DNA of 64,000 bases. It comes from a virus. The stretch lies in the IMG/VR virus record IMGVR_UViG_3300036760_000945, positions 18,852-82,851 of that record; one strand, 5' to 3'. The notes beneath the pieces were generated by a model. That model was not told where the DNA came from and did not search any database. It saw only the letters and a list, made by a program, of their open reading frames with translations. The position numbers and the translations under genes are program-made. Position 1 is the first letter of the stretch; every line of letters starts with the position of its first letter. Of the stretch, positions 1,229-33,458 are shown one piece after another.

Positions 1229-1273
1229 TTTTATACCTCTTTCTTGTATAAATTGGGATCATTTTCTCTAAAT

Positions 1274-2281: not shown

Positions 2282-2290
2282 GTTATTCTC

Positions 2291-3436: not shown

Positions 3437-3438
3437 TG

Positions 3439-7811: not shown

Positions 7812-8260
7812 TATGAGGACTCCTCTGTAGGTCCTATAAACAGGAACGTACATTGTATCACATAGAAGGAGTATATGCCCTCTATCTCGATACCAAGGAT
7901 CTTCTCTGCAAAACTACCAACCATAAGTACATCATAGTCGTCACCGAAGTGTGTGGTCAGGACCAGGATATTCGAAGGTGTTCCGTTTGGATTATTATAG
8001 GAGAAGAACGTCTTTAGATCCTCGAGTGTTCCCCAGTCACTCTCTTCGTATTCGTCTTCTTCCTCGGTGTGCCGTACACGTACCAGGTATTCATGCTGCT
8101 CATAGAGCCCGCCCATGGACACATCAAGGCCGCCATCAAGCGTCCTGTCAACCGTTTGTGACTTTTCCATAGTAGGGTTATATCCCTCAAAAAGGACATG
8201 AAACCTTTTAGAGAGGGTGTCATTGCTATTTGTCAAAACGAAATATTTGTTCGTGGTCAT
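7811..8260 (-). CDS. Distal tail (Dit-like) protein
   Basis: 149 aa directly after TMP; RTLDG motif. Confidence 0.5.
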   Translation of the reverse strand: MTTNKYFVLTNSNDTLSKRFHVLFEGYNPTMEKSQTVDRTLDGGLDVSMGGLYEQHEYLVRVRHTEEEDEYEESDWGTLEDLKTFFSYNNPNGTPSNILVLTTHFGDDYDVLMVGSFAEKILGIEIEGIYSFYVIQCTFLFIGPTEESS

Positions 8261-11200: not shown

Positions 11201-14200
11201 CTGTTTCTTTATCCTGATCGGTACCACCTAGGCCAGCAGCAATACCTGTCGTAGAAAAAACAGTCAGGAAATTCTGCAGGGAGGCATATGCCCCACCAGT
11301 AGCAGCAACCTTTGACATTTGGTAGGCCACGGTTTCGGGGGCTTGCATTTTTTGATAAGTTTGTGCAGCTATATTAAGTCCTGCAACGCCCGCAGCAAGC
11401 GCAATTGCACCGGGGCCCTTTGCAAAACTCATCATCCCCGTACCTTCACCTGCCCACTGGCCAAATTGTTGAGTAATAGCATAGGCACCAAGCCCAGCTA
11501 CTCCCGTAGAAGTAATGTCGGATAGTAATGGGTTTTGCGCTATTATCATCTTTCCAGCAGTTACTGGGTTGACCTGGGCACCATAAAGTGCAGTTATATT
11601 CTGTGCTGCACGTAATTGGTTATAGGGCACATAAGCAGCTCCACCTGCTTGCGAGGCAGCACCAGCAAAGGTATCTTGCATTGCCAACGCTTCTTGTTGA
11701 CCCTGTCCTACACCACCCGTTATCATCCCCGCAATACGGGCCATGTACATCATGCCCCAGCCCCCTAGCGCTCTCCTTAGAAAGGATCCTCTAAACAACT
11801 GTGGGGTACCGGTTATATCCTCCTGAAGTTCGCCCTCTTGCCTACCAAGACGACCCAATTCGCCTTCTGCTCTGCGTATCTTGCTGGGTAGACCAGGTTC
11901 TACTGCACCGGCTCTATATTGTTCACGATAACCAGCAAGTTCTGCTGTTACTGTTGCCCTTTGCTGCTGTACTTCAGCAAGTCTTATTTGCCGCTCAGAA
12001 TTCTCATACTGCTTGAGTTCGGCCTTGTTCATATTTTCAAGAGAACCGCCGGCCTTATCGAGTAAACCTTTCTGTCTCTCCATTAACTGGTTATATTTCT
12101 CGACAGACTCTATTGGCAACTGGATCAGCTCTTTGGCGCCCGCGCCACGTCCGCGGCCAGCACCGCCAGTAGTACCCAAGTCCTCACTTCTACCAAGAAT
12201 TGGGGAGCCAAACACACCCAGTTGCTGAAGTGCATCATAGGTCGCGCCGCCGGCTACAGCACCAGCCCGCAACATTTCATATTCTGCACCGGCACCCAGG
12301 CCCAGTTTCTCTGTAGCATATTTGAAAGCGCGTTGCACCTGTGGTGCATTTGCGCCAATGCCCTTAAGCAGTTTCTGCACAGGGGCAATAGCAGCGCCAA
12401 ACTGCTCAGGGGCATTCTCCAGGGCCCAGCCAATACGTTGGTACATCTCTCCTGCAGGTGCACCAAGTTGAGTTAAAACACCCTCAATGCCAGCCCGCAT
12501 AGGTTCAAGATATGGCCTGGCGCCCTGTAACCACGCTACAGTAGCTTGATAGTCACGCGAACTCATATAGGGAGGTTCTTGTAGTTCTCCAAAGGAACTC
12601 CATCCTCTGCCACCCCCACCGCCTCTACTTCCACCCGCGCCTCCACCCTGACCGCCACGCCAACCGCCGCCGCTCGGCGGTCTATTGCCGCCGCCGGCCA
12701 TCATTCGAAGATCGGCTTCTCTTTGTTGGGCCCGCGCCGATGGAATATCTTGCTCTCTGCGGAAGCGCTGATAGGCCTCAGCATCCATTTTCGTCTGCTC
12801 AGGCGTCTTTGTTGGATATTCAGTTGCCCTCTGTGGCGCACCTGTAACCGCAGTTGCCGCCTGGCGCTGGCGCTCAATCGCAGCCTCTATTTGCCGATTT
12901 AGCCCTTGGCTTTCTTCTACCTTGCCAGGATCAATTATATCGGTACCAGGAATAAATGTTGCAGTAAGTTTTGTTTTGAGAGAAGCAATTGTATCCTCTG
13001 CTACACCAAGAGGAATACCGGTGCCAGCAAGCATTGTTTCCCAGGGCGCTCGAGCGGCAGCAGGTAGAGTAGCCATGGCCGCTGTAATTTCATGTCCGCC
13101 AGGGATTTTGCCTGCCATAAGATTTGCAATTGTACCCGTGGCCTGCCACTGCTTATAGAGTTCAGGGAACTTCTCTTGGAACTTCGCTCCAAGTTGGAGA
13201 GCGCCAGCCTTTGTCGTCGCCATGCCGCCGAGAGCAGTCATGATAGGTAGTCCCATCATTTCGCCGTAGCCCTGTTTCTCTAGTTGTTGCCACAGGACTT
13301 CTTTTCTACCGGCAATTGGTACACCCTGGAGTTGCTTGAGCAAACCCTCATAGCCACTTGCAGGTGCAAACATACCCGCAAGCATCTCGCTTGCAATCGG
13401 GTAATACTCTTTGCCTTTCTCTACGATCGGACGTGTAGCAATATCGGCAATGCCATGTAGAAAGTTAGAAACCCCGCCTGCGGCAGCGCCCTCGGCACCT
13501 AATACATATTTGCTCTTGTAGCGTCCACCAGCACCCAACACGCCAGCCATTAGTTCGCCCTCGGGGGTAAACTTGGCACTACCAAGCAGAGAAGCAAAAG
13601 GTACGCCGCTCTTGCCTGTAAGCCACTTATCGAGACCTGTCTGGTAGGGCTGTATCAAGCTCTCTGATACATCTGCAATGGTTTTGGCAGAATAGCCAGC
13701 CATTTGCATTGCAGGATACATGGGATTGCGGATATTATAGGTCTGCCCCATAGTTGCCTGTGAATACACTGCCATTTGGCGGTGCACAGCCTGTGCCTCT
13801 TTCATACCGCCCCATTGTAGATCATTGCCCTTGCCAAGAGGATCAACGCCCTGAATAACATCCTTCATCGCATTGAAGGTCGAGGACGATCTCTGGTAAA
13901 TACCAACATCCTGGAAGCGTGCTTTTGCTATACCCGTGGCCTTTTCGGGGGTCAGGGCTGCATTTTCTTTCCAGAAATCCTCGGTTGCAAAAGTTTCTAG
14001 TTTGCCCTCTGGAGTTCTACGCAACATCTGAATTACCGTTGCGATATCCCTGTCCAGATCGCCCTGAGAGGCTTGCGTACCCGCGGCAAAACCAACAAAA
14101 GCGCCCCCTCTATTCTCGGGGTTTGCGAGTGCGGCAGCCGCGGCCTCAGAGCCAACGCGAGCCGCATATTCACCATAGCCAATTTCCCGCATGGCCAGAG

Positions 14201-17200
14201 AACTCTCCGCGCGCGAACCTACGGGAATACGGGTAAAGGTAGCTGCGAGTTTGCCAGATGTGGCAATAGTTTCATATTGCTGCCTGGCACCGGGCAGCTC
14301 GCTCTCCGCAAAACCAAGCCTGCGAAGCACCAGATCCCTTGTATCGGGAGCCATAAGCATTTCGTTTGTCTGTAATCCGGGCAGACTTGCATAACGCAAT
14401 GTTGCGCCACTCGGTACTTCCCTGGAGGCGATCTCTTTATAGGCCTCGCCTCGCTCAGAGAAGTTCTGTTTGAAGAGATTATATAGACCTGCAATACCAC
14501 CAAGGGCAGCAGTGCGAGAGCCGGCCTGCTCCGCTGCCACGGCAGCCCTAAGTGCCTTGAAATAAGTACGCCCACCACCGCCGATCTCGGTCCCAAGTGG
14601 TGCATACTGCAGTTCCTGCATTGCCCTGGGTGCCACAAGCGAAACACCTGTCCTTGGGAAATAAGGTACGCCAGCAGTCTCTCCGGCATCGCCAATAACA
14701 CCACGAAAAGCCTCAAGGCGCTCACGAGAAGGCATGCCTCGAGTGCCCTCTAGGACTGCCGAGGCCCGTTGCAGCAACGCGGGCGTCATCTCGATCGCGT
14801 TTTCTGGTCTATAGCCTTGCCCAGCCGCGACAGACTTGGTTTGTGCATAGAAGCCAAAGGCCTGTTTCCAGGCGCCCTGCATTCTTGTAGCGTCGCCGGG
14901 CACAGTATTCAGTAGGCCTAACCACTTTGACATCTCCGGCCATTTCTGCGATAGGCCAGCACCAAGTTCCATATTTACACGTGCGCGACCGGCATACTCG
15001 GGTACCATGTAGTTCATTGTTCTTGCATAGGGTACAGCACCTGCAGCAGTCTGTGTTAGAAGTGGATACTCGGCGCGGTTTCCCTCTACATCAGCCAAGA
15101 TGGAAGTTGCTATCTGACTAGGCGTACCACCCTCTGCAGAAGTAGAATATCTCTGTCTTGCAGCCGCCTCAAGTTGTGCCTCGGTAGCATTCTTGAATTC
15201 CGGCATAGTGCGCAGAACCTCTTTGGCCTGCATCGTCATGAAGTTGATCATGTCTGGTGAAGCACGATAAGAGAAGGAAGGATCTCGCACTAACCCAATC
15301 TCGTGTTCCCTTAGATGGCGAATATTCTCAGGAGACTCCGGCGTCACGCCCTTGAAGAAAACCGTATTGAAAATATCCGCAGCCGCCTCCATACCCGTAC
15401 CCGTGAAGGGCACATCGCTCTTTCGGGTCTGTCTTTGCCAGTATTGCCCAAGGCGTTCAAGATCTAACTGCATACCACCGGCGCCCTCGGGGAAATTCTT
15501 CCCAACCCAGCGAGACAACCTGGCTGCTTCTGGCGTACCAGTCTTACCTGCATATTCCTGGAAGATATTGAGGATCTGCGAGCGGGACTGCGCTGCCATG
15601 ATGCCCATAACGTCCATTATGCCGGCACCCTTGACCTCGCCATGTACGTCGGTCACTGGTAGGTTAAGACCGCCTTGCTGGACAGAAGCAGTTGTGCCGG
15701 CAGAGAAAGCACCGATTTTCTCCCCAAGTCCACGCGCCTTCGCGCCAACATCATAAGCCATGCCATAAGCAGAGAGGTTTACTGTACTGATGTTGGATCT
15801 GTTAATTATAAGATCGGGGTATTGTGCCTGGAGTTGTGCAACTAGAGGCTCGGTAGAAACTCCCTTCGCTACGGCCTTACCCGTTACCGGATCCCAGAAA
15901 GAGGGAATATTCAAGTAGGCGGCACGTACCTGGAAATTGCTAACAGAACCAGCCACGCCCATGAACTTACTGGGTTCGCCCACCTCGGTTGGGCGTCCAA
16001 TAATTTCCTCTTCACCCCTTGGTAGTCTGAACCTGCCAAGTGTCAAACCAGGACCGCCAGCAGGCACCGTTCTACCAACAAGTCCCTTCTGAATTGCCAG
16101 AGAGCCCGGCCCCTCACCAAGTAGGGTGCGTAAGTCCTCTACTGGAATATCGGGAGAGACATAGCGGCGTTGAAAACCAAAAGTCAGATTCTCGGGGCGT
16201 GCAGGATTCTCATAACTTACTGCTGCACCGGGGATGCCCGTGGGTGCAAACAGGGTTCTTCTAAGTTCACCAATGCGCCCCTCTTTCTCTCCGGGGTAGA
16301 GAATATTGGCTCTCGCAAGATATTGTTCTCCGCCCGGAGTAATAACCTCGGGCTTGATGGCCCTCAACATAGGCCGACCCGTAGAATAATCCATCACATA
16401 GGCATTGGCTTGCTGTGTGCCGAAGAAGAGAGAAGAGGATTTGAAGGTTTTCTCGGGCTCGCGTGGGCCGAGCATTTCCCTGGTCAGAACTGTTTGCTCG
16501 CCAGGCTGGCCCGCATAAGTACTTCTAACACCACCGGCACCACCAAAGGCCTGTGGCTCTAGCATCCCAGACTTGCCATACATGAGACCATATTTAGCCA
16601 GCTCGGTCCAAGTATATGGCTTGCCCTCTACGATTCTCCCTGAGAGAGAGGCAATCCTTGCCTCAATATCTTTCCCAACATTCCCAGGCACCCAGGGTGG
16701 TATATCTTCAGCCTTGCCAGTTGTACTCTCGAAAGCAAACTGAACACGCCCCTGCATTCTCTGTCTTTGTGCAGCGCCTTGTGGGTTCCAGACATCAAGA
16801 TATGCAGGGGGGATACCCAACATAGTATCGCCATAGGACAACAGTCTACTAAAGGCTTTCTCTGCTGTTTCCCCAGGCCGCTTTGTCCCAAATGCGCCAG
16901 AGACAGTCATTGCCAGGCGCTCCGCAGGAGAAAAGACCTGTGGTGTCTCAGCGTATTCTTCTGTCTTCGGATTTACGCGAAACTTGAAAAAGCCAGTTTC
17001 CACATAGGGTTGCTGGCCTGCTGTTTGCCTGCCGATAAGATAAGTCTGTCCTAGAGGCCCCCCATATCCTTCTGCAATATCCAAAGGCAGCGTTTCCCCA
17101 CTACCGCTCATTGTGATAAAGTAACGTGGATATTTCTCTACAAGCTGCCGCGAAATAGCATATTCGCCGCCCAGCATACTCCGTAATCTGGCAGTGATCG

Positions 17201-17240
17201 GATCGTTCTCTTGGCTGGAGAATGGAACTCTAAGTGGCAT
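8262..17240 (-). CDS. Tape measure protein with putative N-terminal two-barrel RNA polymerase and C-terminal Hint domain
   Basis: Follows tail chaperone pair; ~2990 aa; Ala/Gly/Gln-rich helical C-half; C-terminal AAGG..VGEQGTE..VIPH motif typical of TMPs; start set at ATG 17240 (AGGAG RBS) instead of 17276. Confidence 0.85.
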   Translation of the reverse strand: MPLRVPFSSQENDPITARLRSMLGGEYAISRQLVEKYPRYFITMSGSGETLPLDIAEGYGGPLGQTYLIGRQTAGQQPYVETGFFKFRVNPKTEEYAETPQVFSPAERLAMTVSGAFGTKRPGETAEKAFSRLLSYGDTMLGIPPAYLDVWNPQGAAQRQRMQGRVQFAFESTTGKAEDIPPWVPGNVGKDIEARIASLSGRIVEGKPYTWTELAKYGLMYGKSGMLEPQAFGGAGGVRSTYAGQPGEQTVLTREMLGPREPEKTFKSSSLFFGTQQANAYVMDYSTGRPMLRAIKPEVITPGGEQYLARANILYPGEKEGRIGELRRTLFAPTGIPGAAVSYENPARPENLTFGFQRRYVSPDIPVEDLRTLLGEGPGSLAIQKGLVGRTVPAGGPGLTLGRFRLPRGEEEIIGRPTEVGEPSKFMGVAGSVSNFQVRAAYLNIPSFWDPVTGKAVAKGVSTEPLVAQLQAQYPDLIINRSNISTVNLSAYGMAYDVGAKARGLGEKIGAFSAGTTASVQQGGLNLPVTDVHGEVKGAGIMDVMGIMAAQSRSQILNIFQEYAGKTGTPEAARLSRWVGKNFPEGAGGMQLDLERLGQYWQRQTRKSDVPFTGTGMEAAADIFNTVFFKGVTPESPENIRHLREHEIGLVRDPSFSYRASPDMINFMTMQAKEVLRTMPEFKNATEAQLEAAARQRYSTSAEGGTPSQIATSILADVEGNRAEYPLLTQTAAGAVPYARTMNYMVPEYAGRARVNMELGAGLSQKWPEMSKWLGLLNTVPGDATRMQGAWKQAFGFYAQTKSVAAGQGYRPENAIEMTPALLQRASAVLEGTRGMPSRERLEAFRGVIGDAGETAGVPYFPRTGVSLVAPRAMQELQYAPLGTEIGGGGRTYFKALRAAVAAEQAGSRTAALGGIAGLYNLFKQNFSERGEAYKEIASREVPSGATLRYASLPGLQTNEMLMAPDTRDLVLRRLGFAESELPGARQQYETIATSGKLAATFTRIPVGSRAESSLAMREIGYGEYAARVGSEAAAAALANPENRGGAFVGFAAGTQASQGDLDRDIATVIQMLRRTPEGKLETFATEDFWKENAALTPEKATGIAKARFQDVGIYQRSSSTFNAMKDVIQGVDPLGKGNDLQWGGMKEAQAVHRQMAVYSQATMGQTYNIRNPMYPAMQMAGYSAKTIADVSESLIQPYQTGLDKWLTGKSGVPFASLLGSAKFTPEGELMAGVLGAGGRYKSKYVLGAEGAAAGGVSNFLHGIADIATRPIVEKGKEYYPIASEMLAGMFAPASGYEGLLKQLQGVPIAGRKEVLWQQLEKQGYGEMMGLPIMTALGGMATTKAGALQLGAKFQEKFPELYKQWQATGTIANLMAGKIPGGHEITAAMATLPAAARAPWETMLAGTGIPLGVAEDTIASLKTKLTATFIPGTDIIDPGKVEESQGLNRQIEAAIERQRQAATAVTGAPQRATEYPTKTPEQTKMDAEAYQRFRREQDIPSARAQQREADLRMMAGGGNRPPSGGGWRGGQGGGAGGSRGGGGGRGWSSFGELQEPPYMSSRDYQATVAWLQGARPYLEPMRAGIEGVLTQLGAPAGEMYQRIGWALENAPEQFGAAIAPVQKLLKGIGANAPQVQRAFKYATEKLGLGAGAEYEMLRAGAVAGGATYDALQQLGVFGSPILGRSEDLGTTGGAGRGRGAGAKELIQLPIESVEKYNQLMERQKGLLDKAGGSLENMNKAELKQYENSERQIRLAEVQQQRATVTAELAGYREQYRAGAVEPGLPSKIRRAEGELGRLGRQEGELQEDITGTPQLFRGSFLRRALGGWGMMYMARIAGMITGGVGQGQQEALAMQDTFAGAASQAGGAAYVPYNQLRAAQNITALYGAQVNPVTAGKMIIAQNPLLSDITSTGVAGLGAYAITQQFGQWAGEGTGMMSFAKGPGAIALAAGVAGLNIAAQTYQKMQAPETVAYQMSKVAATGGAYASLQNFLTVFSTTGIAAGLGGTDQDKETAKWTVLRQMMSGQPNAQMWQLAGTLPGTTQYVKALSTTMQIAQGQRTDLAPDAIAKAFTLVSNQNLPQSYWQRFAEQYQQGMQPGELAAGILSASGMGAGAFAAAPLYGTLQGPPALGQTTAGTALIPGVTTTVQGALANYISKNYPTANQQALLGLGGQYTSGFGAAAAWLPGNVTTASQLRTDTDMKKYLDNQIANGILYNKPAGDVYKARYSAWMAQRAAGLTRTPAPLQTEYISGGEAVAMLPEEAARQTATWSAQEAQANYRIGIGAQLQQQAYQFNRPALGNQLYQQFTSGAMPKGQEWFYNQLYNAQPTAVAALAATGGISPQLMAQRFPMITGQTMGINNMALTDIRMGTNQPTGLNWGQSSLAQVGQTGLQTAQQIWGRNWQTSTGLAAPFIAGMAGGIAIPGGPMTLASGETIGNIGGQYALQFMQNQSQYNQAMASAGLAMKRVNQNLAFTTGVGIQQYAGTINPQTGQPFGPLYQGGTWGLQDAQRALGYQQQGWQFGFQQRGMNLGAQQFQENMALNQRGTQMQRGWTQQDWGYQTQTRELQWGWRQEDYAENIRFMTGRERKLAERQMGRETIMHDLEGEQIDKQKNRQKELWKLEDQRFALQNKQFKENLKMQQEQLDKSIEYYQQNKILQEEQTKLERAQYIQQMALEKESAGITAFYAKQQKDLNDAMVKFQIYADNAKGALSLLTDDALMDWQTAMSTSIPILKKWIDQLLRMPGVTTEHGEGEGNAPCFIAGTMITMVAGLTKPIEEVQVGDMVLSMNIKTREPVNARVNKVFHHSAKSNCGYITINKHLGVTAGHPMSINGEWAHAKTLRLGDALLDKDGKDVVVTDLSWNGEQVPSYNFGTDDETHSYFAGGVLAHNLESMKAAGGILRGLASGAVEVGEQGTEGIVGGRVIPHSEWESLKRIHNLFQRPVGVTIAGGSSYIPMGGKKAGAPQIVNIYIGNEKLSSFVLDAVTKELRS
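8568..8963 (-). other. Hint (intein-like, BIL-A/pretoxin type) domain, 132 aa, within TMP
   Basis: Block A CFIAGTMI, block B VTAGHP, blocks F/G SYNFGTD..HSYFAGGVLAHN; the next residue is Leu. Confidence 0.9.
14046..14237 (-). other. Putative RNAP catalytic barrel motifs (FTRIP ... GDLDRD)
   Basis: RxP at 14223-14231 and DxDxD at 14046-14060, in the order of beta' NRxP...NADFDGD. Confidence 0.65.
15717..15749 (-). other. Putative RNAP beta-like two-lysine motif (VGAKARGLGEK)
   Basis: Resembles GDKxAGRHGNKG of RNAP beta; lies N-terminal to the DxDxD motif. Confidence 0.55.
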
Positions 17241-17505
17241 TTGCAGAGGCTCCTGGTATACTTTCCATAATAGCAATTTGTTGTTCTATCACCGACCACT
17301 CCAAGAGCCAGATATGTGGTTGGTCGAGTACCCCACCGGCAACAAGTGGAAGGCCAGTAGATCTGCATCTTTCATACAAGGTCATAGCCTCAGGTTTTTC
17401 TGGGAAATCAACCTTGAGGCCTGCCTTCAGTTCATTGAGTAGACCATAATATTCTCTAATCTCGTCTCGTAACTTCTCCAATTTCCCCGCGACTAGGCTT
17501 CCCCC
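17230..17505 (-). CDS. Tail assembly chaperone, -1 frameshift extension (gpT-like)
   Basis: Open -1 frame overlapping the chaperone 3' end, between chaperone and TMP; GGVLDQP motif. Confidence 0.75.
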   Translation of the reverse strand, partial: GGSLVAGKLEKLRDEIREYYGLLNELKAGLKVDFPEKPEAMTLYERCRSTGLPLVAGGVLDQPHIWLLEWSVIEQQIAIMESIPGASANAT

Positions 17506-22715: not shown

Positions 22716-24236
22716 TTAAGCTACGATAGGCTCGGTATCCTTTCGGATACCCGGTTTCTTGCTATTATCGGGCAGATTGCCTATGGGTTTTTGTGGTGCA
22801 GCCGCAGTCTCTTCCTTGATCTTAACCTTCTCTTCTTCGATGTCAGGAATGTCACCAAAGAGGGACATGAGATGCTCCTGCGAGCCTAACTTGTATTTCG
22901 CGCGGATGCCAGCCTCATTGATAAGTGCAGTACGATCTACAGGCAACATCGGTGCCCAGGAAATGATAAGCGGTGTAGCAATATGTTCCTCTGTGATCTC
23001 GTTGATACCCTTGATAGACATCATCTTCAATAAGATCCTGCAGAACTTAGCCAGGCCGACTGTCCAGAAGATGCGCTCCATCTCAGCGTGTGTGACCAGC
23101 GGCCACATCCTTGTAGAGAGGGTCAAGCTCGAACGTTGCGAACCCTCGTCTTCCCCATCTGCAACTGCCGGATGAATGGCCTCGCGGCGATAGATATCGT
23201 AAAGTTCTCCGCCAAGTCTAAGCATTACATCCGAAGCAGTTTTGAGAGAGACCGTCAGTAGGTCCGGGTTTGCCTCATTACCCGCAAGGCCTGTAGTACT
23301 GCCAAGGTCAAGGATGGGCCGGCCATCTATCTTCTTGACCTGTACAGCGCCTCTTACATTGCGCATTGCAATTGGCTGATGCGAGTCGTCGCTGACCGCA
23401 TCGCCGGTATCTGCCCAGCGTAAGTTTATTTCTCTGATAACACCCTTGATCATCTCAGAGATAATGGAGTTGCCAAGGAATGTAGTTGTCCGTAAGTGTG
23501 GGATATATTCTATTGGGACAACCCCAAAGGGATTTACGCCCTTTTGAGGCGTGTCACCGAACATGATTGTCTGCCCGTTGATCGCAATCTCGTATTCTTC
23601 TTCTGTCCAGTGTTCCGTATAGAAATACTTGAGGTCATTCTCGCTAAGGGCATACTCGGTCTTATAGGACTTGATATCGTCTTTGGTAATCTCCCTAACG
23701 ATCCAGGCCTCTCTTAGCTCCCAATAATTGGCGCCTTTGGGAAAACCGATGAACTCTTTTGGCGAGGGATTGAAAATGCCAATCCGCTTTTCTATTGGCA
23801 GCCAACTAGCACTAAAGACACAGCCGCGGAGGTATTGCGAGATAATTCCATTCGAGATGAATAATGCGCCGCCGCCGTTGTCTTCAAAGACATTTTTCAG
23901 TGCCTTCTCGACCGCCTTGCCTTGTGTTTTCTTGCCCTTCTCTACATCAGCCAATATTCTGACCGGTACGCCTCCGTAGTGAATGCTGTCCAGTGTCTGC
24001 CCGAATAACGCCGATGTATGTCGCTCACAGGTACCCTTCAGCGGATTGATCTTGATAGGGTATTTATCTATCTTCTTCCCGGAGGCAGTATCTACGGTGA
24101 AGTCGTCCAATTTGGCGCCGGAATACCAATCCTCGAGCATGGCATAGTTCTCGAGTTGGGTCATATAGGTCGTATACGGGAACCCCTTGAGTTCCTGAAG
24201 AGTAAAGGGTGCAGAGAAGTTTGTTAGCTCAGCCAT
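22716..24236 (-). CDS. Portal protein
   Basis: 506 aa between TerL and scaffold; NPFGVVPIEYIP; WAPMLPVD. Confidence 0.85.
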   Translation of the reverse strand: MAELTNFSAPFTLQELKGFPYTTYMTQLENYAMLEDWYSGAKLDDFTVDTASGKKIDKYPIKINPLKGTCERHTSALFGQTLDSIHYGGVPVRILADVEKGKKTQGKAVEKALKNVFEDNGGGALFISNGIISQYLRGCVFSASWLPIEKRIGIFNPSPKEFIGFPKGANYWELREAWIVREITKDDIKSYKTEYALSENDLKYFYTEHWTEEEYEIAINGQTIMFGDTPQKGVNPFGVVPIEYIPHLRTTTFLGNSIISEMIKGVIREINLRWADTGDAVSDDSHQPIAMRNVRGAVQVKKIDGRPILDLGSTTGLAGNEANPDLLTVSLKTASDVMLRLGGELYDIYRREAIHPAVADGEDEGSQRSSLTLSTRMWPLVTHAEMERIFWTVGLAKFCRILLKMMSIKGINEITEEHIATPLIISWAPMLPVDRTALINEAGIRAKYKLGSQEHLMSLFGDIPDIEEEKVKIKEETAAAPQKPIGNLPDNSKKPGIRKDTEPIVA

Positions 24237-24896: not shown

Positions 24897-27563
24897 CTAT
24901 CGAGGCCACGTCGTTGACGAACCTGCCTCGTCTCGCCTGCGGGTACGTACTTCATTTCTATCATGTCGGCGCCCCGAGACAAGTCCAGGGCTATCATCGC
25001 CAGTCTCGCTGCTGTTTTCCTCTCCAAAATCGCCATAATAAGCCCGGATCGCAAACGCACCCATTGCCAACGTTGCAACAACGTCTTGCGCCAGCTTGCC
25101 ACCACTTGCTTTATCCGCGATAGGATCATAGTTTTTTAGTTGGCTTCCTATGCCAGTACAGATCGAAGGCCATGAGAGCATCTTGCTTTCGAGCGATAGT
25201 CTCAGTGCAACAAGGTAACTATACCTTTTTGCGCCCGAAAAGTCAAGACCGGTTATTGAAATGACCGACTTCTTCTTGCCGTAGATATAATCCGTGCTGA
25301 TCAGCTCCGCCGTACTCTTCTGGGGCCCGGTATTGTCCACGGCAGCCAATATGGGTCCATAAGTATCGATCCACTCGATAAAACGGCTCACAAAAGGCAT
25401 GATCGAGCCTGCGCCATTACCCCACCAGAAAGCAACTATTGGACTATGCACTGGCGCCTCTGTGACATCAAAAACGATGATACAGGGAGCATTTCGGGAG
25501 GGTGCCACGCCTGTGCCTGGGTCGCCAATGATGAAATATTGGCGTCCTGCCTTACGTGGCTGTCTGAGATAGAACGCACCCATGTGCGGCAAGGTCTCCA
25601 TCTCATAACCAGCCTCGCCTTTGTCGATGGCATTCAGGACTATCTCTGATTGCCCGGCATCCAAGCAGGGATCAACAGTCGAGGCCGGGAAGTAAGAACC
25701 CTTACCCTGTGGGCGGTCCCCGGTCATGAAACGGTTGTGCAGTTCTTTGGGGATCATCTTCAGCGCAAAGCGGATCTGTTTATCGGTCGTATTCTTGTTA
25801 TACTTGGTGTCAATGTTGAATACCAGCCCGTCCTCTTTGTCCGCTGCTGCCATATCATAGAGTTGCCACAGCTCGGGGTTTTCCCACGGGTTAGAGATGA
25901 GCGAAAGCCGGCCTAGATAGGGGCGGTTCTCGGCAGTGCCGCCAGTAAGGCGGGTGACTAGGTTTGTCACCACCACCCCCAAATCGTCTATTTTCCCGGC
26001 TTCTTCGATATTGATCCAGTCGCCGCGGTAGGAAAAGATGTTTTCTGCAGTCCCCTCCTCACCCAATGTCTGAAATTCCAGAAGCGAGGAGAATTTCTTG
26101 GTGCCAATATAATACTCGAGGGCAACCTGCGGCCAGGGGCGCTTTGGCGCAGAGACAATGAGTTTTTCAAAGGGTGTGCCCTCGACCTGCTCCATTAGCG
26201 CTCGATACATAAGCATTGACTGCCAGGCACTGGGTGCAACATTCATAAACTTGAATAATTGCGTCAGCGCCGCATGATAGGCGGCACCCATCACCACGCC
26301 GACGGTTTTGCCAGAATTATGAGAGACAACACCCTCCATAACATAATTTTCGTAGCCGGGAACATGGATATCATATAGATCTATTTCTCCAACATCCTCT
26401 ATTTTAGTAATAATTGGTGTATAATAGTCCCACTTATTATTCTTGGGAGAGAAACATGGATCAGGAAGAACTTCAAATACTTGTTGATCAATTTGGGACA
26501 CAGACGGCTGTAGCAAAGCGCCTCGGGATAAGACAGCAAGATCTCTGGTATCTGGTAAAGAAAAATCACTGGCATATTCACTATGATATAACTCGCCGCA
26601 GAAAGAAGGGCTCGAAACTTGATCCTTATTCTCTAATACTGAAACATCTGGGAGATCTTGGTTGGAGTTGCCAGAGAATTGTTGATGCCCTCGAACTAAA
26701 GACCGATCCTGAGCACGTTCGTCGCTGGTTGGTTGTCCATTGTCCCCAAAAACGGAACAGGAAGCACGGTGGTGTGGGGGAAAGAAGTCCTGCCTTTGTC
26801 GATGGTGACTATTATAATAGGAAGGATAATTCTTATAACTTTGTACCCGCGCCAGAGGGGTATATGGGTCAGAAGAAATCAAATGGTTGGGTTGCAGAAC
26901 ATCGTCTTGTCGTTGAAAAGGAACTTGGCCGACTTCTTCATCCGGGCGAGGTTGTACATCATATTGATGGGGATGGAAAGAATAATCTCCCTGGAAACCT
27001 GATGACTTTCCCGACAAATCGCGAACATCTACTGTGGCACTGGGAGCAAATGCAGGCAAAATATGAGGAGCGATTAGAACATCTCCGAGCCGTAGATCGC
27101 GAGTACGTACAAACCCTTGGCTGGCAGTCATAAAACGATGATCCAGAGAGACGGTAATTGTATTACCATTAGAGAAGGAAAGTCTTTTTGCCCTGGCCTT
27201 TCCCTTGTAGAACGGCAGTGTTGCCTGGACCATTGCCCATCCTGATATGCCGCGGGCTAAAACAACTGGCGCCCTCTTATTATCAAGAAGCCACCTAAAT
27301 GATACATATCTCCCAAGTTCTACATCATAGAGATGACTATCAATGTCGGCGCAACTGATCCCACAGATGGCAACAATAAACGATTGCGTTGCCATACACA
27401 TTGTTTCTTGCCATTTACCCTCTGACTCGAAGTTCCAGTCCAGCATCCATCCGTGTTCTTGGTTTGGTTTTCTGAACCAGTAATCACAGAAAATATTGGG
27501 ATTGGCCGCCCCGGCCCTAAGAATTTCAATCTCGGCAGCAGTCATTGCGTGAATCGAGGGCAT
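24897..27563 (-). CDS. terL: Terminase large subunit (intein-containing)
   Basis: Walker A CGIS^SGKT split by intein; Walker B WINIEEAG; LISNP; nuclease motif IIGDPG; ~542 aa after splicing. Confidence 0.92.
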   Translation of the reverse strand: MPSIHAMTAAEIEILRAGAANPNIFCDYWFRKPNQEHGWMLDWNFESEGKWQETMCMATQSFIVAICGISCADIDSHLYDVELGRYVSFRWLLDNKRAPVVLARGISGWAMVQATLPFYKGKARAKRLSFSNGNTITVSLDHRFMTASQGFVRTRDLRLGDVLIAPHILPAFAPSATVDVRDLSGKSSGFQGDYSFHPHQYDVQPRPDEEVGQVPFQRQDDVLQPNHLISSDPYTPLARVQSYKNYPSYYNSHHRQRQDFFPPHHRASCSVFGDNGQPTSDERAQDRSLVRGHQQFSGNSNQDLPDVSVLENKDQVSSPSFCGELYHSEYASDFSLPDTRDLAVLSRGALLQPSVSQIDQQVFEVLPDPCFSPKNNKWDYYTPIITKIEDVGEIDLYDIHVPGYENYVMEGVVSHNSGKTVGVVMGAAYHAALTQLFKFMNVAPSAWQSMLMYRALMEQVEGTPFEKLIVSAPKRPWPQVALEYYIGTKKFSSLLEFQTLGEEGTAENIFSYRGDWINIEEAGKIDDLGVVVTNLVTRLTGGTAENRPYLGRLSLISNPWENPELWQLYDMAAADKEDGLVFNIDTKYNKNTTDKQIRFALKMIPKELHNRFMTGDRPQGKGSYFPASTVDPCLDAGQSEIVLNAIDKGEAGYEMETLPHMGAFYLRQPRKAGRQYFIIGDPGTGVAPSRNAPCIIVFDVTEAPVHSPIVAFWWGNGAGSIMPFVSRFIEWIDTYGPILAAVDNTGPQKSTAELISTDYIYGKKKSVISITGLDFSGAKRYSYLVALRLSLESKMLSWPSICTGIGSQLKNYDPIADKASGGKLAQDVVATLAMGAFAIRAYYGDFGEENSSETGDDSPGLVSGRRHDRNEVRTRRRDEAGSSTTWPR
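26316..27353 (-). mobile_element. Intein (346 aa) in TerL Walker A
   Basis: Starts with Cys (CADIDSHL); block B TVSLDHRF; block F LYDIHVPGYENY; ends SHN followed by +1 Ser. Confidence 0.92.
26456..27133 (+). CDS. HTH + HNH homing endonuclease encoded antisense within the intein
   Basis: 225 aa; GGGAGAG RBS; HTH TQTAVAKRLGI; HNH motif EHRLVVEKELGRLLHPGEVVHHIDGDGKNNLPGNL; GTGTATAAT -10 element at 26417-26425. Confidence 0.9.
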   Translation: MDQEELQILVDQFGTQTAVAKRLGIRQQDLWYLVKKNHWHIHYDITRRRKKGSKLDPYSLILKHLGDLGWSCQRIVDALELKTDPEHVRRWLVVHCPQKRNRKHGGVGERSPAFVDGDYYNRKDNSYNFVPAPEGYMGQKKSNGWVAEHRLVVEKELGRLLHPGEVVHHIDGDGKNNLPGNLMTFPTNREHLLWHWEQMQAKYEERLEHLRAVDREYVQTLGWQS

Positions 27564-27564
27564 C

Positions 27565-27870
27565 CTAGTTCCTTAGACTATCGCGTAAGAGTGCTAATCC
27601 GTTCTCCCAAATCTCGTCGGCCAGGAGTACATCCCGGTAGTCTGTTGGGAGTTCCATATTACTGAGCATCGCATCTTGCAGGAACCGGATTTCCTCCCTA
27701 TCGAAGACAAAGATCATCCGTCGGTCCTCACGTTCAAGGCATATCGGCTGGATCTTGTGAGAAAGGAAGTATTTGACTGTACCCTCACGGTCAAACTCTG
27801 CTCTATTCTCTGGTTTTACGGTCTTTCCAGGAGTAGTTGATAATACCAATCGTGCCATTTTGTTCTCCAT
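27565..27870 (-). CDS. Hypothetical protein upstream of terL
   Basis: ORF abutting terL start; start codon uncertain (27870 or 27858). Confidence 0.55.
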   Translation of the reverse strand: MENKMARLVLSTTPGKTVKPENRAEFDREGTVKYFLSHKIQPICLEREDRRMIFVFDREEIRFLQDAMLSNMELPTDYRDVLLADEIWENGLALLRDSLRN

Positions 27871-27926
27871 TGTCCCTCTACCGTGGGACATATATAGGGT
27901 TTTTTACTCTGCTTTATTCTTATCAT

Positions 27927-28823
27927 CTATTCTACTTCTTCCAGATAGACAACGAAGCCATTTTTGACGAGCACCCACAAATTCTCGCCAACCCTGCCAA
28001 ATTCCTGGCGATCAAGTTCGGTGGGGGCCTCAAGAAGTTTGATAATGTCTCCCTCGTGAAGTCTACCACGAATACTCGCGCCCAGAGTTGGACTTGAGCG
28101 CAGTGCCGTTGATTGTACACACTTCATCTTCCAGACCTTGGGAATTGACGATATTTCAGTGGCTTTCGCCTGCTCTTTGATAACTGTGCCCAAGATAGCG
28201 GTATAGGGGAACAGGAATACCTCATCGTAGTCCTGCCCCAGGGTCTTGAGTGTGATTTCCAGTTCTTCTGGGGTACAGGCACCCATAAAAATGCCTGGGA
28301 CCTGTTTATACCCACGTGCTTGTGGCTGATTTAGTGTTTTCCAAGAGAGTAAAGGCGAGAAATAGAGGTTATCTGGTCCAATTCTGTCTTTAAGGCCGCG
28401 GAATACCTGCCCGAGTGCTGTTTTTGTCATATTCGGGCTCGCAAGTGCACCGTAAACACAGATTTTTATGGGAAAACCCACATCGGCCAGAAATCTTGTC
28501 AGTCTTTCGGCTATATCTTCTGGTAAGGGGCCCAATGTCTCATAAACACGGACAAAAACACGCGGAATTTGGTATTTCTGGACCACATCGAGCATCGGTG
28601 CCAACCAGGCGAGTTTTCTTCTCCAGGTTGGAGAGAAAATCAAAGCCGCCTCAAGCTGGTTCCCCTTTATCTCCCAGAATAACCGTTCAATTTCCGGCAT
28701 CTTGGTGTCGGCGTCCACGCTGACTATAACGAAGTCAACCCCAGTGTTCGCGAGCCGTGGAACGGTATCCCCGGGCAATCCCTGTAGGATGTCATCCTTA
28801 CTGAGAAGTACACCTATTTTCAT
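27927..28823 (-). CDS. Protein with C-terminal SH3-like cell-wall-binding domain
   Basis: ALRSSPTLGASIRGRLHEGD..WV..YLE C-terminus. Confidence 0.55.
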   Translation of the reverse strand: MKIGVLLSKDDILQGLPGDTVPRLANTGVDFVIVSVDADTKMPEIERLFWEIKGNQLEAALIFSPTWRRKLAWLAPMLDVVQKYQIPRVFVRVYETLGPLPEDIAERLTRFLADVGFPIKICVYGALASPNMTKTALGQVFRGLKDRIGPDNLYFSPLLSWKTLNQPQARGYKQVPGIFMGACTPEELEITLKTLGQDYDEVFLFPYTAILGTVIKEQAKATEISSIPKVWKMKCVQSTALRSSPTLGASIRGRLHEGDIIKLLEAPTELDRQEFGRVGENLWVLVKNGFVVYLEEVE

Positions 28824-29383: not shown

Positions 29384-30220
29384 TTATTCTTTCTTGAGAT
29401 ATTTCAGTCGTACCCAGCCGAGTGGTATCCTGGCCCAGTCATTTACAATATCGCTTACCACAACAATCTGCCCAATAGCTATGCGGCTAACTATTTTACA
29501 ATTGAGGCCATCGTTAGGGGTTTTAAAGATCCATGAGGCCGCCAAGACGGTATAGTTTCCTACTGGCGGGGGCGAAGGAGGAAGAATTGCCGGCGGCGTA
29601 GATGCGAATTTATACAATTCTTCTACGGTCCCGTGGAATAGGTTTTGATCTACGTCAAGACTTTCGCAACCGTATGCTTCGCCTTTACCTCTATCTGTAT
29701 ACTGCCAAAACGTCCATGTTGCCCATGGCCTGGGAGTCTTTATAAAGATTTCCCAACTATACCATGCCAGCCAGAATGGGAATATTTTCCAGCCAATGTC
29801 TACCGAACCAAATTCGTTCCAGTAATAATAACCGGAATAAATCGCGGGGATCTTCCCAAGTTTATCCTTTACATACTGTAGGAAGTTCCACAACCTCCCC
29901 CGTGCTTCGGCAGGACTTGGCTGGCCACTTGTTAACTTTTGCTCAAAGTCACAAACGGGCGGCAATTCACCGGGATCATCCTTGAGCAAACCCGTAAACA
30001 GCTTAGCCTGTTCGAGTTCACTCATTCTAAAATCCAGATAGTGATATGCACCGCGTAAAAGCCCTACTTTCTTTGCGGCTCTCCAGTATTCTAAGAAACG
30101 TAAATCTGCAATACGCTGAGACGCCTTGATATATACAAATGTTGCACCGTTCGCAAGCATTTTTGCAAAGTCTACTTCACCATCCCACCAACTTATGTCT
30201 ACGCCAATTGCTCTAGTCAT
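29384..30220 (-). CDS. Endolysin, GH25 muramidase + SH3-like domain
   Basis: GVDISWW, FVYIKAS, GAYHY, DFE, FWQYT, DVDQN; AAGGAG RBS before ATG 30220. Confidence 0.92.
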   Translation of the reverse strand: MTRAIGVDISWWDGEVDFAKMLANGATFVYIKASQRIADLRFLEYWRAAKKVGLLRGAYHYLDFRMSELEQAKLFTGLLKDDPGELPPVCDFEQKLTSGQPSPAEARGRLWNFLQYVKDKLGKIPAIYSGYYYWNEFGSVDIGWKIFPFWLAWYSWEIFIKTPRPWATWTFWQYTDRGKGEAYGCESLDVDQNLFHGTVEELYKFASTPPAILPPSPPPVGNYTVLAASWIFKTPNDGLNCKIVSRIAIGQIVVVSDIVNDWARIPLGWVRLKYLKKE

Positions 30221-30524
30221 GATTTTTCTCCTTGCTATCAAGATCTTTGAGTAACAACGAGGTATCCATGCCAATGTCTCCAAGAAACTGGTATAGCGAG
30301 GTTTCGAGGCCCGATATCTGCTCGTGGGGCAAACTAAACTGGAGATGATAATTTATCGCTTCAAGTACTTCGTGTAACACCGTTGACTCCTGCGACTGCC
30401 TGTGTTGGTCCGGGTCAACATTGATAATCTGTTTCACGGTATGGAGTCTCCCGGCCTGATCCATGCCGCCGTTCTCCATAGAGGGCGAATATTTCAATTT
30501 ATAATTGTAGCCGAATATTCTCAT
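30213..30524 (-). CDS. Small zincin-like protein (degenerate HExxH)
   Basis: STVLHEVLEAI motif. Confidence 0.55.
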   Translation of the reverse strand: MRIFGYNYKLKYSPSMENGGMDQAGRLHTVKQIINVDPDQHRQSQESTVLHEVLEAINYHLQFSLPHEQISGLETSLYQFLGDIGMDTSLLLKDLDSKEKNHD

Positions 30525-31436: not shown

Positions 31437-33458
31437 TTATCTAATTCGTATAGCACTCCACAAACGCTCGACTTGATTGAAAGAGGCCCAATTGCCGGTA
31501 GGTATTACTTCTTCATCTACAACCCTGCAGACACCAGGATATTTAGGCAACTCGTGATCGTGAAAAGCTATATAACCGCCAATCGGCACAAATTTATTCC
31601 AGGCAAGCCAATCGGCGTGCACGTCCTCATATTTGTGACTGCCATCGATAAACAATAGATTAATGGGCTTGCCGCGCTTGGCGGCGGCCCTTAGGCTGGT
31701 CGTCATGTGTGGATGTATAAAGGACGGGAAACTGCCAAAGATCGAGATAATCTGTTCTTTGAAGATCTTTGGGGTTTCGGGCAAATGATAACGTAATGAA
31801 CCGGTACGCCCCATGGTCCAAATATCGATAGTATGCAACACTGCAGTAGTGTTCTCCGCAATCACCAATCCCATCCCCAAATAGCACGTGGACATACCCC
31901 GATAGGGACCTATCTCGACAATCGCACCGTCCTTGGGAATTTGGGTTGCCAGGTATGTCAAATACTCACCCTCCATTGGACTGATCCTGCCGTCTAGCTG
32001 GGCCAGCTTCTTCTTTTTGTCAATTAGGTCTGGCGTAAACACCACCACCGGTTCATTGCGCGCTATCTTTCTCTGCATATTCACGATCGTATCGGGCACG
32101 ACCTCTTGCACGCGCGCAAGTAGTAAATCCATGTCGCCGTGCGCCCCAGTGGCATGAAATTCGCCGCGGATGGCCTTGATATGCTTGAGTGGGACTAAGT
32201 CTTCGAGTATCTCGTATTCTGCGCCCTCGCAATCTATTAAGAGTAAAGAAATGGGTCTTTTGGTGCCCGTTACGGTGCTCAAGATTTTAGACAATGTGAT
32301 TGAGGGTACTTCTGGATCCCCGCCGGCGCCATAGATATGATGAGCACCACTATTCTTGCCCATGCTCATCCTTATTTTACGCCCATCTTTGGTAACAGCT
32401 AGATGATGAACCTTGACGAGATCAGTCAGTTTATTCTGCTGGATATTCTTGATAAGCCTCCCATAATTGAAAGGTGACGCCTCAAAGACATAGACACGAC
32501 AGCCATACTTCTTTGCCAGGGTCATACTGACTTCGCCAACGTGTCCGCCAATCTCTATCACGATATCTTTGGGGCCAAGTCCCCAGGTATCGGTACGATA
32601 GTCCGTTTGTATCTCCTTTAGTATAACCTTCTCCTCCCAACCCGGGTCCGCAAATACAAGGCCCAATGGATTAAGTGGATCGGTCACTGCCCGCTTTCCT
32701 TTCATTTCCACCAATTTTGGTGATGGATAACCGTCCCTTGGTATTGGATGCAAATCCCTGGCTAGTCCCCACATGTGGTAGACGAGGGTGTTCTCGTCGG
32801 GACTATTGTTGTTCCAGTCATTAGTAAGTCTCAACACCTTGACATCAGGGCAATTCTTCATTGCCCGAAGAAACGCCATTTCTTCCTGCCAGTTAGGTAT
32901 ACGTTTCCATTGTCTGTACCATTCATCGAAGAGTGTCGCAAGGCGCTCGTTCTTGTGGAAGAAAATGACTCCTGAATTGATATATGGGTGTTTATCTGGC
33001 GGATATCCGGTAAGGAACTTGCTAGTATGGTCTCTTTCCTTCCTCGGCGCATTCCAGTCCGGCTTTTTATTGTCTGGCTTGAACAAGTCCTCCAACATCC
33101 ACCGACATCCCTTGGATATGCACATATCATATTCCTTGAGATAGTCAAACCCAGGCATTATATCCCCCCATACCTCGGTGTCTGCATCGAGATAAAGATT
33201 GTACTCGAATGGAGTATATTTGTACAAAAACGGCTTTACGTTGCCGGCCCAAAATCTAAGTCGTCCAGGCACCGTTTCTGGCCCCCAGGGATTATTCCCT
33301 TCCCATTGAATAAAAGTTGTTCCAGGTACTTTGTGTGTCCCTATAGAAATAACAGGAAGATCTATCTTCTGCGCCCTAACCGACTTAAGACTCTCGATGG
33401 CAGCAAGTACCGATACAGGACCAAAGGTCATATATATTATTCCGAGATTCTCGCTCAT
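31437..33458 (-). CDS. Tri-domain GT-A (GT8-like) glycosyltransferase + FkbM methyltransferase + class I methyltransferase
   Basis: LYLDADT/NSGVIFF; IEIGGHVG..IDCEGAEY; VEIGPYRGMS..IDGSHKYE..IAFHD. Confidence 0.85.
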   Translation of the reverse strand: MSENLGIIYMTFGPVSVLAAIESLKSVRAQKIDLPVISIGTHKVPGTTFIQWEGNNPWGPETVPGRLRFWAGNVKPFLYKYTPFEYNLYLDADTEVWGDIMPGFDYLKEYDMCISKGCRWMLEDLFKPDNKKPDWNAPRKERDHTSKFLTGYPPDKHPYINSGVIFFHKNERLATLFDEWYRQWKRIPNWQEEMAFLRAMKNCPDVKVLRLTNDWNNNSPDENTLVYHMWGLARDLHPIPRDGYPSPKLVEMKGKRAVTDPLNPLGLVFADPGWEEKVILKEIQTDYRTDTWGLGPKDIVIEIGGHVGEVSMTLAKKYGCRVYVFEASPFNYGRLIKNIQQNKLTDLVKVHHLAVTKDGRKIRMSMGKNSGAHHIYGAGGDPEVPSITLSKILSTVTGTKRPISLLLIDCEGAEYEILEDLVPLKHIKAIRGEFHATGAHGDMDLLLARVQEVVPDTIVNMQRKIARNEPVVVFTPDLIDKKKKLAQLDGRISPMEGEYLTYLATQIPKDGAIVEIGPYRGMSTCYLGMGLVIAENTTAVLHTIDIWTMGRTGSLRYHLPETPKIFKEQIISIFGSFPSFIHPHMTTSLRAAAKRGKPINLLFIDGSHKYEDVHADWLAWNKFVPIGGYIAFHDHELPKYPGVCRVVDEEVIPTGNWASFNQVERLWSAIRIR

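Follow-up and report, generated by a model that had tools for sequence, protein, structure and literature searches.

An 82.9-kb viral contig from a sediment metagenome (IMG/VR record IMGVR_UViG_3300036760_000945; ~53% complete according to CheckV) carries an intein whose DNA also encodes a nuclease on the opposite strand. The intein lies within the stretch of 64,000 nucleotides (nt) that was analysed here, hereafter referred to as the window, which corresponds to positions 18,852 to 82,851 of the record; coordinates below are those of the window. The interrupted gene, which probably encodes the phage large terminase (TerL), is one unbroken open reading frame (ORF) of 888 amino acids (aa) that comprises an N-extein, the intein and a C-extein (24897..27563, − strand). 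The locus is very probably a composite selfish element in which two genes occupy one stretch of DNA: a class-1 intein inserted in the P-loop codons of the terminase gene and, antisense to the intein, a gene for a homing nuclease that combines helix-turn-helix (HTH) modules with an HNH_3 nuclease domain.

The intein is 346 aa long (26316..27353, − strand) and runs from Cys1 to His345-Asn346, followed by Ser at position +1; it was identified by its match to the Pfam family Intein_splicing and by its conserved residues. With a slash marking the splice site, the junctions read “...FIVAICGIS/CADIDSH...” at 27353 and “...MEGVVSHN/SGKTVG...” at 26316, the latter giving the C-terminus “VVSHN/S”, in which His-Asn precedes the +1 Ser. 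A Pfam search with the entire precursor returned Intein_splicing alone (5e-12), in a match split by a long unmatched middle, and the isolated intein matched the same family above its cut-off (4.8e-13). Among 31 relatives of the intein, H72, V331, Y337 and N346 are invariant, while C1, D328, N336 and H345 are nearly so, with C1 and H345 conserved in at least 90% of the sequences. The TxxH motif of block B reads “SLDH”; this is a conservative variant in which the Thr position is occupied by Ser69 and the invariant H72 is retained.

An AlphaFold2 (AF2) model of the intein, for which the 31-sequence alignment served as input, is confident only at the two ends. Residues 1-100, which include blocks A and B (27054..27353, − strand), are modelled as the N-terminal splicing half of the HINT fold with pLDDT values of 92-98, and residues 310-346, which include blocks F and G and end in “VVSHN” (26316..26426, − strand), as the C-terminal splicing half with values of 96-98. 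Between these halves, residues 101-309 (26427..27053, − strand) have pLDDT values of 36-54 and no predicted secondary structure. Both confident halves can be superposed on the Ssp DnaB mini-intein (1mi8) with a Z-score of 21.4 and an rmsd of 1.7 Å over 135 residues; in the model, residues 1-100 and 310-346 thus form a complete mini-intein fold. The central segment is the antisense shadow of the nuclease gene. Because its intein-frame reading is stop-free, fast-evolving and predicted to be unstructured, the data support a role as filler that is removed with the intein and is constrained only against stop codons.

The gene on the opposite strand encodes, from its ATG, a 225-aa endonuclease with an HTH-HTH-HNH_3 layout (26456..27133, + strand). 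The protein matches Pfam HNH_3 (PF13392) with an E-value of 7.5e-9 and a score of 35.5 bits, compared to a curated cut-off of 24.8, and matches 11 PHROG families of HNH endonucleases (best 2e-17). A genome-wide search identified this gene as the only HNH_3 gene of the record (37.2 bits). The catalytic core, “EHRLV...EVVHHIDGDGKNNLPGNL...REH” (residues 149-191; 26900..27028, + strand), is marked by residues that are invariant in 30 antisense-encoded HNH homologues, namely H149, R159, E165, V166, V167, H168, H169, D171, N176, N177, N181, L182 and H191; among them, H168, H169, D171, N176, N177, N181 and H191 fit the catalytic residues expected of a beta-beta-alpha-metal nuclease. In the AF2 model, which has a mean pLDDT of 88.2, two three-helix modules are followed by a strand-strand-helix nuclease core (strands at 166-169 and 182-185, helix at 188-220) and a long C-terminal helix. 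The two modules (residues ~3-36 and 56-95; 26462..26740, + strand), with helices at 3-13, 16-23 and 27-36 and at 56-67, 72-79 and 85-95, are predicted to bind DNA; the N-terminus has weak Pfam matches to HTH families (YdaS 1e-3, P22_Cro 0.04), and the modules have weak structural matches to HTH domains (Z 3.5-5.4). When residues 124-198 were compared to 48,161 chains with an exhaustive aligner, the top match was the homing endonuclease I-HmuI (1u3e), although the match is modest (Z 6.1, rmsd 2.7 Å, 65 residues, 26% identity). As in I-HmuI and other HNH_3 homing or nicking endonucleases, the HNH_3 motif is joined to HTH modules. In the I-HmuI structure, the nuclease is N-terminal to its HTH. 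Unlike the intron-encoded I-HmuI, the window enzyme has two HTH modules before the nuclease, and its gene is nested antisense within an intein. The stop codon of the HNH gene (27131..27133) lies immediately 3′ to the codon for His72 in block B, and hence the HNH C-terminus overlaps “FMTASQGFVRTRDLRLGD” of the intein.

Both reading frames are open across the HNH gene. The two frames are aligned such that HNH codon position 1 faces intein position 1, position 2 faces position 3, and position 3 faces position 2. There are no intein-frame stops across the HNH gene. This was compared to two null models, one in which the HNH protein is kept and synonymous codons are resampled, and another in which the codon order is shuffled. 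Resampling predicts 5.2 antisense stops with the codon usage of the window (P(0) = 0.0012) and 5.5 with that of the HNH gene itself (P(0) = 0.0004); shuffling predicts 9.1, and none of 5000 shuffled genes was stop-free. The HNH gene contains 40 hazard codons (NTT, NCT or NTC), each of which would create an antisense stop if the next base were A, and A follows none of them. The openness of the intein frame is not due to chance. It extends to relatives of the element: 44 of 139 unique HNH ORFs, including that of the window, can be read from end to end in this relative antisense frame without a stop, giving 0 stops in 10,087 codons where ~330 would be expected. By comparison, free-standing HNH relatives have 0.033 stops per codon in this antisense frame, and the other two antisense frames of the 44 elements have 0.033-0.059 stops per codon.

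An open frame is not what would be expected if the locus were a fractured gene with a split intein, i.e., if two polypeptides were joined by trans-splicing, a free-standing HNH gene lay between them, and the continuous frame were incidental. The architecture does resemble the fractured genes of Dassa et al. 2009 (PMC2677866), which likewise have a free-standing-type endonuclease between splicing halves in a phage or environmental gene; the predicted lack of structure in the central segment also fits a split intein. However, a split intein would not select for an open frame, yet none of the ~330 stops expected across the 44 elements is present. For the window alone, the stop-free frame has a probability of ~0.001. 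Moreover, the fractured host genes are physically split into two ORFs, whereas the window has a single 888-aa ORF, the read-through of which is selected. Judged by the openness of the frame, a split intein is therefore extremely improbable.

Comparison of related elements indicated which of the overlapping frames is under selection. Sequence differences concentrate on the third positions of HNH codons, equivalent to second positions in the intein frame. Counted by HNH codon positions 1/2/3, there are 4/10/57 differences between loci L131 and L147, 15/12/57 between L042 and L067, 8/3/17 between L071 and L084, and 67/58/118 between the window and L008. Omega (dN/dS), estimated by the Nei-Gojobori method for the same nucleotides, is 0.10-0.18 when these are read in the HNH frame but 1.2-3.4 when they are read in the intein frame, although dN/dS is biased in overlapping frames, such that only the contrast between frames is meaningful. 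At the protein level, the window and L008 are 64.7% identical when compared in the HNH frame, but only 34.7% identical when the intein frame is translated. Given that the differences sit on HNH third positions, that omega is low and that the catalytic residues are invariant, the nuclease is the selected product; the central intein peptide is not, beyond the avoidance of stops.

The HNH gene is preceded by likely expression signals. The Shine-Dalgarno (SD) sequence GGGAG ends 6 nt before the ATG (26445..26449, + strand), and a −10-like TATAAT is located 31-36 nt before the ATG (26420..26425, + strand), in intein codons Y310-Y311 of “WDYYTP”. Both signals recur in 31 related elements, in which the HNH start is mostly 107-164 nt from the C-terminal end of the intein. 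An SD of at least 5 nt before the HNH start is found in 22 of the 31, compared to 4% of random positions, and a perfect TATAAT is found 24-51 nt upstream in 14 of the 31, compared to 1.2% of random positions; if one mismatch to TATAAT is allowed (at least 5/6), the numbers are 20 of the 31 and 12%. These data suggest that the HNH gene is expressed, and that it probably has its own −10 promoter.

Much of this had been anticipated by the sequence-only reading of this DNA, which proposed a 346-aa intein with intact splicing blocks and an endonuclease-free middle, and a 225-aa HTH-HNH protein on the + strand at 26456-27133 with its own ribosome-binding site, a TATAAT in the YYTP codons and a 3′ end overlapping a conserved intein segment. 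The split Pfam match, the AF2 fold of the splicing halves alone, the HNH_3 and PHROG matches, the GGGAG and TATAAT sites and the position of the HNH stop codon bear out these proposals. The same reading regarded the nuclease gene as a separate gene whose antisense translation is filler, and this agrees with the frame-specific selection, the SD, the likely −10 and the unstructured, stop-free middle. Its figure of roughly 10 expected stops is of the right order of magnitude, given the 5.2-9.1 computed here, and the comparison of dN/dS in both frames that it suggested gave the contrast described above. It also raised the possibilities of intein-frame stops in homologues, of which the 44 antisense-open relatives have none, and of an assembly chimera. 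An independent Logan assembly reproduces 25500..28200 without any difference, inside a 22.6-kb contig, and a chimera created by the assembler at the intein locus is therefore unlikely. This contig came from the single run that holds the window DNA, a DNA run from a sediment metagenome that is probably the source sample.

A tblastn search with the whole precursor against 50,697 phage records gave no match, and a search of phage records with the HNH protein gave partial matches only, all with <60% identity. Similarly, a pattern scan with the single HNH sequence yielded no confirmed relatives in viral contigs and one partial relative in genome contigs. An alignment of three HNH proteins retrieved 160 further HNH loci from viral and metagenome contigs. 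Protein P0001 has an HNH that is 53% identical to that of the window. A separate search with the C-extein matched five viral contigs (L001-L005). In L001-L004, a 538-aa protein reads “IIAICGIA/SGKTLGTI” uninterrupted, with the intein exactly absent at the insertion site of the window (marked here by the slash), and there is no intein and no HNH match in the 6-9 kb of sequence covered. By contrast, both the intein and the antisense HNH ORF are present in L005, whose C-extein is 50% identical to that of the window.

The extein comparisons reveal a sporadic distribution. The 70-aa N-extein (27354..27563, − strand), which ends in the first half of Walker A (“AICGIS”), is 67% identical to the intein-less L001 allele. 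The 472-aa C-extein (24897..26315, − strand) begins with the second half of Walker A (“SGKTVG”) and is 77% identical to that of the intein-less L001-L004, but 49-51% identical to that of the intein-bearing L008 and L009. Thus, the element is missing from the nearest exteins (77%) and present in more distant ones (49-51%, 28-33%). L007 and L008 carry an identical element, with an HNH 63-65% identical to that of the window, and the HNH identity of the window and L008 (~65%) exceeds their C-extein identity (49%). In all related elements, the relative frame is the same, with HNH position 3 opposite intein position 2. Where both junctions are on the contig, 37 of 38 antisense-open elements have canonical junctions (X/C ... 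HN/S, T or C), the exception being L087, which has Ser first; all complete relatives end in N followed by S, T or C, and nearly all in HN. Intein_splicing was detected in 9 of 10 long antisense ORFs tested. Two relatives have unusual first residues. The intein of L087 (479..1555, − strand) starts with Ser (“GGFA/STDID”), and that of L088 (24..857, − strand) apparently starts with Thr (“GGYG/TSDID”), with a boundary placed by alignment only; a Thr1 nucleophile is unusual.

The module of homologous intein and HNH gene occurs in genes for Terminase_3, Terminase_6, unclassified terminases like that of the window, and an SNF2 helicase. The insertion is always in the P-loop codons, at GGNGGNAAYCGN/TCNGGNAARAC or GGNAAA/ACN. 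The extent of the family was assessed with a profile built from the intein-frame “shadow” peptides alone, leaving out the splicing blocks. Of 1.84 billion cluster representatives, 704 matched this shadow profile at E≤0.001, among them 318 with E≤1e-10; the matches are mostly proteins of 750-900 aa, with the shadow at ~residues 150-320. Nine shadow-profile proteins were tested, and in eight of them Intein_splicing surrounds the shadow. The remaining protein, a RecD2-like helicase, gave no intein match, and its shadow immediately precedes the AAA domain. A canonical LAGLIDADG intein is also present in two of the nine. Hosts of the shadow include Strawberry-notch-type helicases in large polyvalent proteins, an SNF2 helicase, a topoisomerase-helicase fusion and another helicase. 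Because the intein and its shadow occur in unrelated P-loop NTPase hosts, the module, judged by this distribution, has moved between unrelated genes, and vertical descent cannot explain its spread. The layout is common in uncultured phages (44/139 unique HNH relatives; hundreds of 50%-identity clusters).

Some of these proteins have further features. In P0073 and P0131, the shadow intein is in the P-loop of Strawberry-notch-type helicase domains within polyvalent proteins of 4,000-4,700 aa (with LPD1, LPD37, LPD38 and InPase domains), and the intein family is therefore not confined to terminases or phage structural modules. P0029 and P0040 (~1,200 aa) contain two inteins each: the shadow intein at about residues 160-340 and, C-terminal to it, one of the canonical LAGLIDADG type. 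A single host gene can therefore harbour different homing systems. In L024, a 1327-aa ORF (1122..5102, − strand) has the shadow intein at residues 135-479 and a weak Hint_2 match at residues 937-974, which may be a second intein or a HINT domain.

The distribution of the module bears on two other explanations for the nuclease. First, the HNH protein could be a domesticated packaging factor, like the cos-site HNH proteins of HK97-like phages, for which the intein is a mere landing pad. Kala et al. in 2014 reportedly found that HNH genes often adjoin terminase genes and are needed for cos cleavage. HNH genes that adjoin cos sites and terminase genes are also described in PMC3592412. However, the closest terminase relatives, L001-L004, have no intein, and no HNH match within 6-9 kb; the module is also found in SNF2, Sno-like and RecD2-like helicases, which do not package DNA; and the combination of two HTH modules with HNH_3 is that of homing enzymes, I-HmuI being the best structural match. 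A packaging role is thus very unlikely. Second, the element could be a relic with a nuclease that is no longer active or expressed, inherited by vertical descent only since precise loss from within an essential P-loop is hard. This would be consistent with the window lineage having few close relatives, and some non-canonical inteins are vertically inherited (Gosselin et al., bioRxiv 10.1101/2025.01.02.630785). Nonetheless, a dead antisense ORF would gain stops fast. The HNH frame is under purifying selection (omega of 0.10-0.18), its catalytic residues are invariant and its SD and −10 signals are conserved; the sporadic occurrence across exteins and the presence of the module in unrelated host genes likewise argue against a relic, which is distinctly improbable.

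The host gene is probably terL. The portal gene (22716..24236; phrog_64, 5e-12) lies directly downstream of the terminase ORF, and the ESM Atlas look-alikes of the intein-less homologue L001 are Terminase_6N clusters (score 0.98). The sole PHROG terminase match of the precursor (phrog_17415) spans just residues 381-441, around the C-terminal junction.

Several points weigh against a composite homing element in a terminase gene, in addition to the bias of dN/dS in overlapping frames and the modest match to I-HmuI. The exteins and the intein-less L001 protein have no Pfam, PHROG or PDB sequence match, and the TerL label rests on gene order, the Walker A motif, the ESM Atlas look-alike and the occurrence of homologous inteins in recognised terminases. 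For the nuclease, a Foldseek search of the PDB with the HNH model gave no match at E≤0.001. The window lineage has one close comparator, with saturated synonymous sites. The TATAAT of the window has no −35 partner and no extended −10 (TGn); a generic promoter and terminator scan of the window did not list this TATAAT, found sites in numbers no higher than in shuffled sequence, and found no terminator. None of the runs on record as RNA holds the window DNA. We infer the splicing of the precursor, the nuclease activity of the HNH protein, its target site in or near the P-loop and the timing of its expression.

With the composite element as the preferred explanation, the following mechanism is proposed. 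The intein would be translated within the 888-aa precursor and would excise itself by protein splicing, joining “...AICGIS” to “SGKTVG...”, with the 209 residues between the splicing halves being an unstructured loop that is held free of stops only. The real gene of this DNA is on the + strand and encodes a free-standing-type HTH-HNH_3 endonuclease, with its own SD and probably its own −10 promoter. During co-infection, this enzyme would nick or cut terminase alleles that lack the intein, at a site within or close to the P-loop codons, and repair would copy the intein and the nuclease gene into the empty site (homing). Occupied alleles would be immune because the element splits the target site. 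Most likely, the element arose when a free-standing HNH gene invaded a mini-intein in reverse orientation, after which stops were purged. All relatives share one relative frame, although three antisense frames are feasible, which suggests a single origin and subsequent spread among P-loop NTPase genes.

A further possibility is that the antisense layout itself acts as a timing switch, such that the nuclease is made early and packaging is delayed. From its own promoter, the HNH gene would be transcribed head-on into terL, yielding RNA complementary to ~680 nt of the terL message, and the disordered loop of ~200 residues could delay or condition splicing. If true, this could explain why one frame layout spread to hundreds of P-loop NTPase genes, and would account for an intein type that is unannotated and apparently dominant in environmental phages. 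This model is speculative and unlikely; nuclease expression ahead of late terL was raised as a possibility in the sequence-only reading.

The sequence-only reading considered the design to be without a described equivalent, and in this respect it was mistaken, since inteins with antisense LAGLIDADG and VSR-like nucleases have been published (bioRxiv 10.1101/2025.01.02.630785). In that study, Gosselin, Arsenault and Gogarten described actinophage inteins, including terminase inteins, with antisense LAGLIDADG, antisense VSR-like or frame-3 endonuclease VII-like genes, and with an in-frame middle that has no recognisable structure; they proposed an origin by invasion of free-standing endonuclease genes. 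The window element resembles the antisense-endonuclease inteins of Gosselin et al. in having an opposite-strand ORF between the splicing blocks, an open intein frame and an unstructured middle, in its host, which is often the large terminase, and in its proposed origin from a free-standing endonuclease that invaded an intein. There are also differences. The nucleases of Gosselin et al. are LAGLIDADG and VSR-like (EDxHD), whereas that of the window is HTH-HNH_3, which appears in their list solely as a domain encoded in frame. Their hosts are actinophages, and that of the window element is an uncultured phage recovered from sediment metagenome data. Lastly, their survey calls such layouts rare, whereas the HNH family is large (44/139; 704 cluster representatives).

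Earlier examples are known through the same preprint, which cites Gorbalenya 1998 and Gogarten 2002 for antisense LAGLIDADG genes in the inteins of Synechocystis DnaX and a Chloroflexus SpoVR-like protein. As cited, the Gorbalenya 1998 case is antisense in one preprint of the Gogarten laboratory, and in an alternative reading frame in the other. For an out-of-frame LAGLIDADG nuclease in cyanobacterial dnaX inteins, dN/dS over the overlap is low when the nuclease frame is read but inflated when the intein frame is read (Phillips, DeSimone and Gogarten, bioRxiv 10.64898/2026.09.14.751524). The window element shares with the dnaX intein the overlapping coding, the frame-specific dN/dS pattern and a sporadic distribution. 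It differs in that the dnaX nuclease is a LAGLIDADG enzyme encoded by a +2 ORF, read as being on the same strand, in a chromosomal replication gene, while the window nuclease is an HNH_3 enzyme encoded on the opposite strand of a phage packaging gene. The ShiLan element provides another parallel, an out-of-frame “hidden” HNH in an insertion in a phage DNA methylase (Arsenault et al. 2025, PMC11855218). As in the window, the host frame runs through the insertion without a stop and the HNH is encoded in another frame; however, the ShiLan insertion is described as having no detectable splicing domains, its HNH starts and stops within the insertion, and this HNH is read as same-strand, whereas the window has a full HINT domain and an antisense HNH. 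Full-text literature searches, in which Gorbalenya 1998 was represented by citations to it, found no report of an antisense HNH intein; in the papers discussed above, HNH occurs as an intein domain in frame only. Thus, the use of an HNH_3 nuclease in the antisense-intein role, and its commonness, are apparently undescribed.

Other parts of the window have features of separate interest. An endolysin gene (29384..30283, − strand; 6e-27) lies just upstream of the packaging module, and a 673-aa protein (31437..33458, − strand) matches two PHROG methyltransferase families (3e-19, 2e-18); both are ordinary phage content. The C-terminal part of a 3004-aa ORF (8262..17276, − strand) contains a Pretoxin-HINT domain (PF07591, 1e-12; residues 2778-2902, 8571..8945), which was also the weak second HINT match in the genome search, followed by ~100 residues without assignment. 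This is the layout of polymorphic toxins, here on a viral contig amid structural genes. A 149-aa ORF directly downstream (7811..8260, − strand) could be the cognate immunity gene.

The findings have practical consequences, since gene callers report one long “hypothetical protein” and overlook the nuclease, leading to mis-annotation of terminases and homing genes. P-loop-targeting nucleases, and inteins that tolerate a large unstructured insert, are also candidate material for enzyme and protein engineering. With respect to the biology of these elements, the locus is a clean example of how the selected member of a pair of overlapping antisense genes can be recognized, and it indicates that a “nonsense” peptide of 200 residues is apparently tolerated inside an essential enzyme, provided that it is spliced out. 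The nuclease types that have entered inteins as separate antisense genes now include HNH_3, and this lends support to the model in which splicing came first and the nuclease invaded later.

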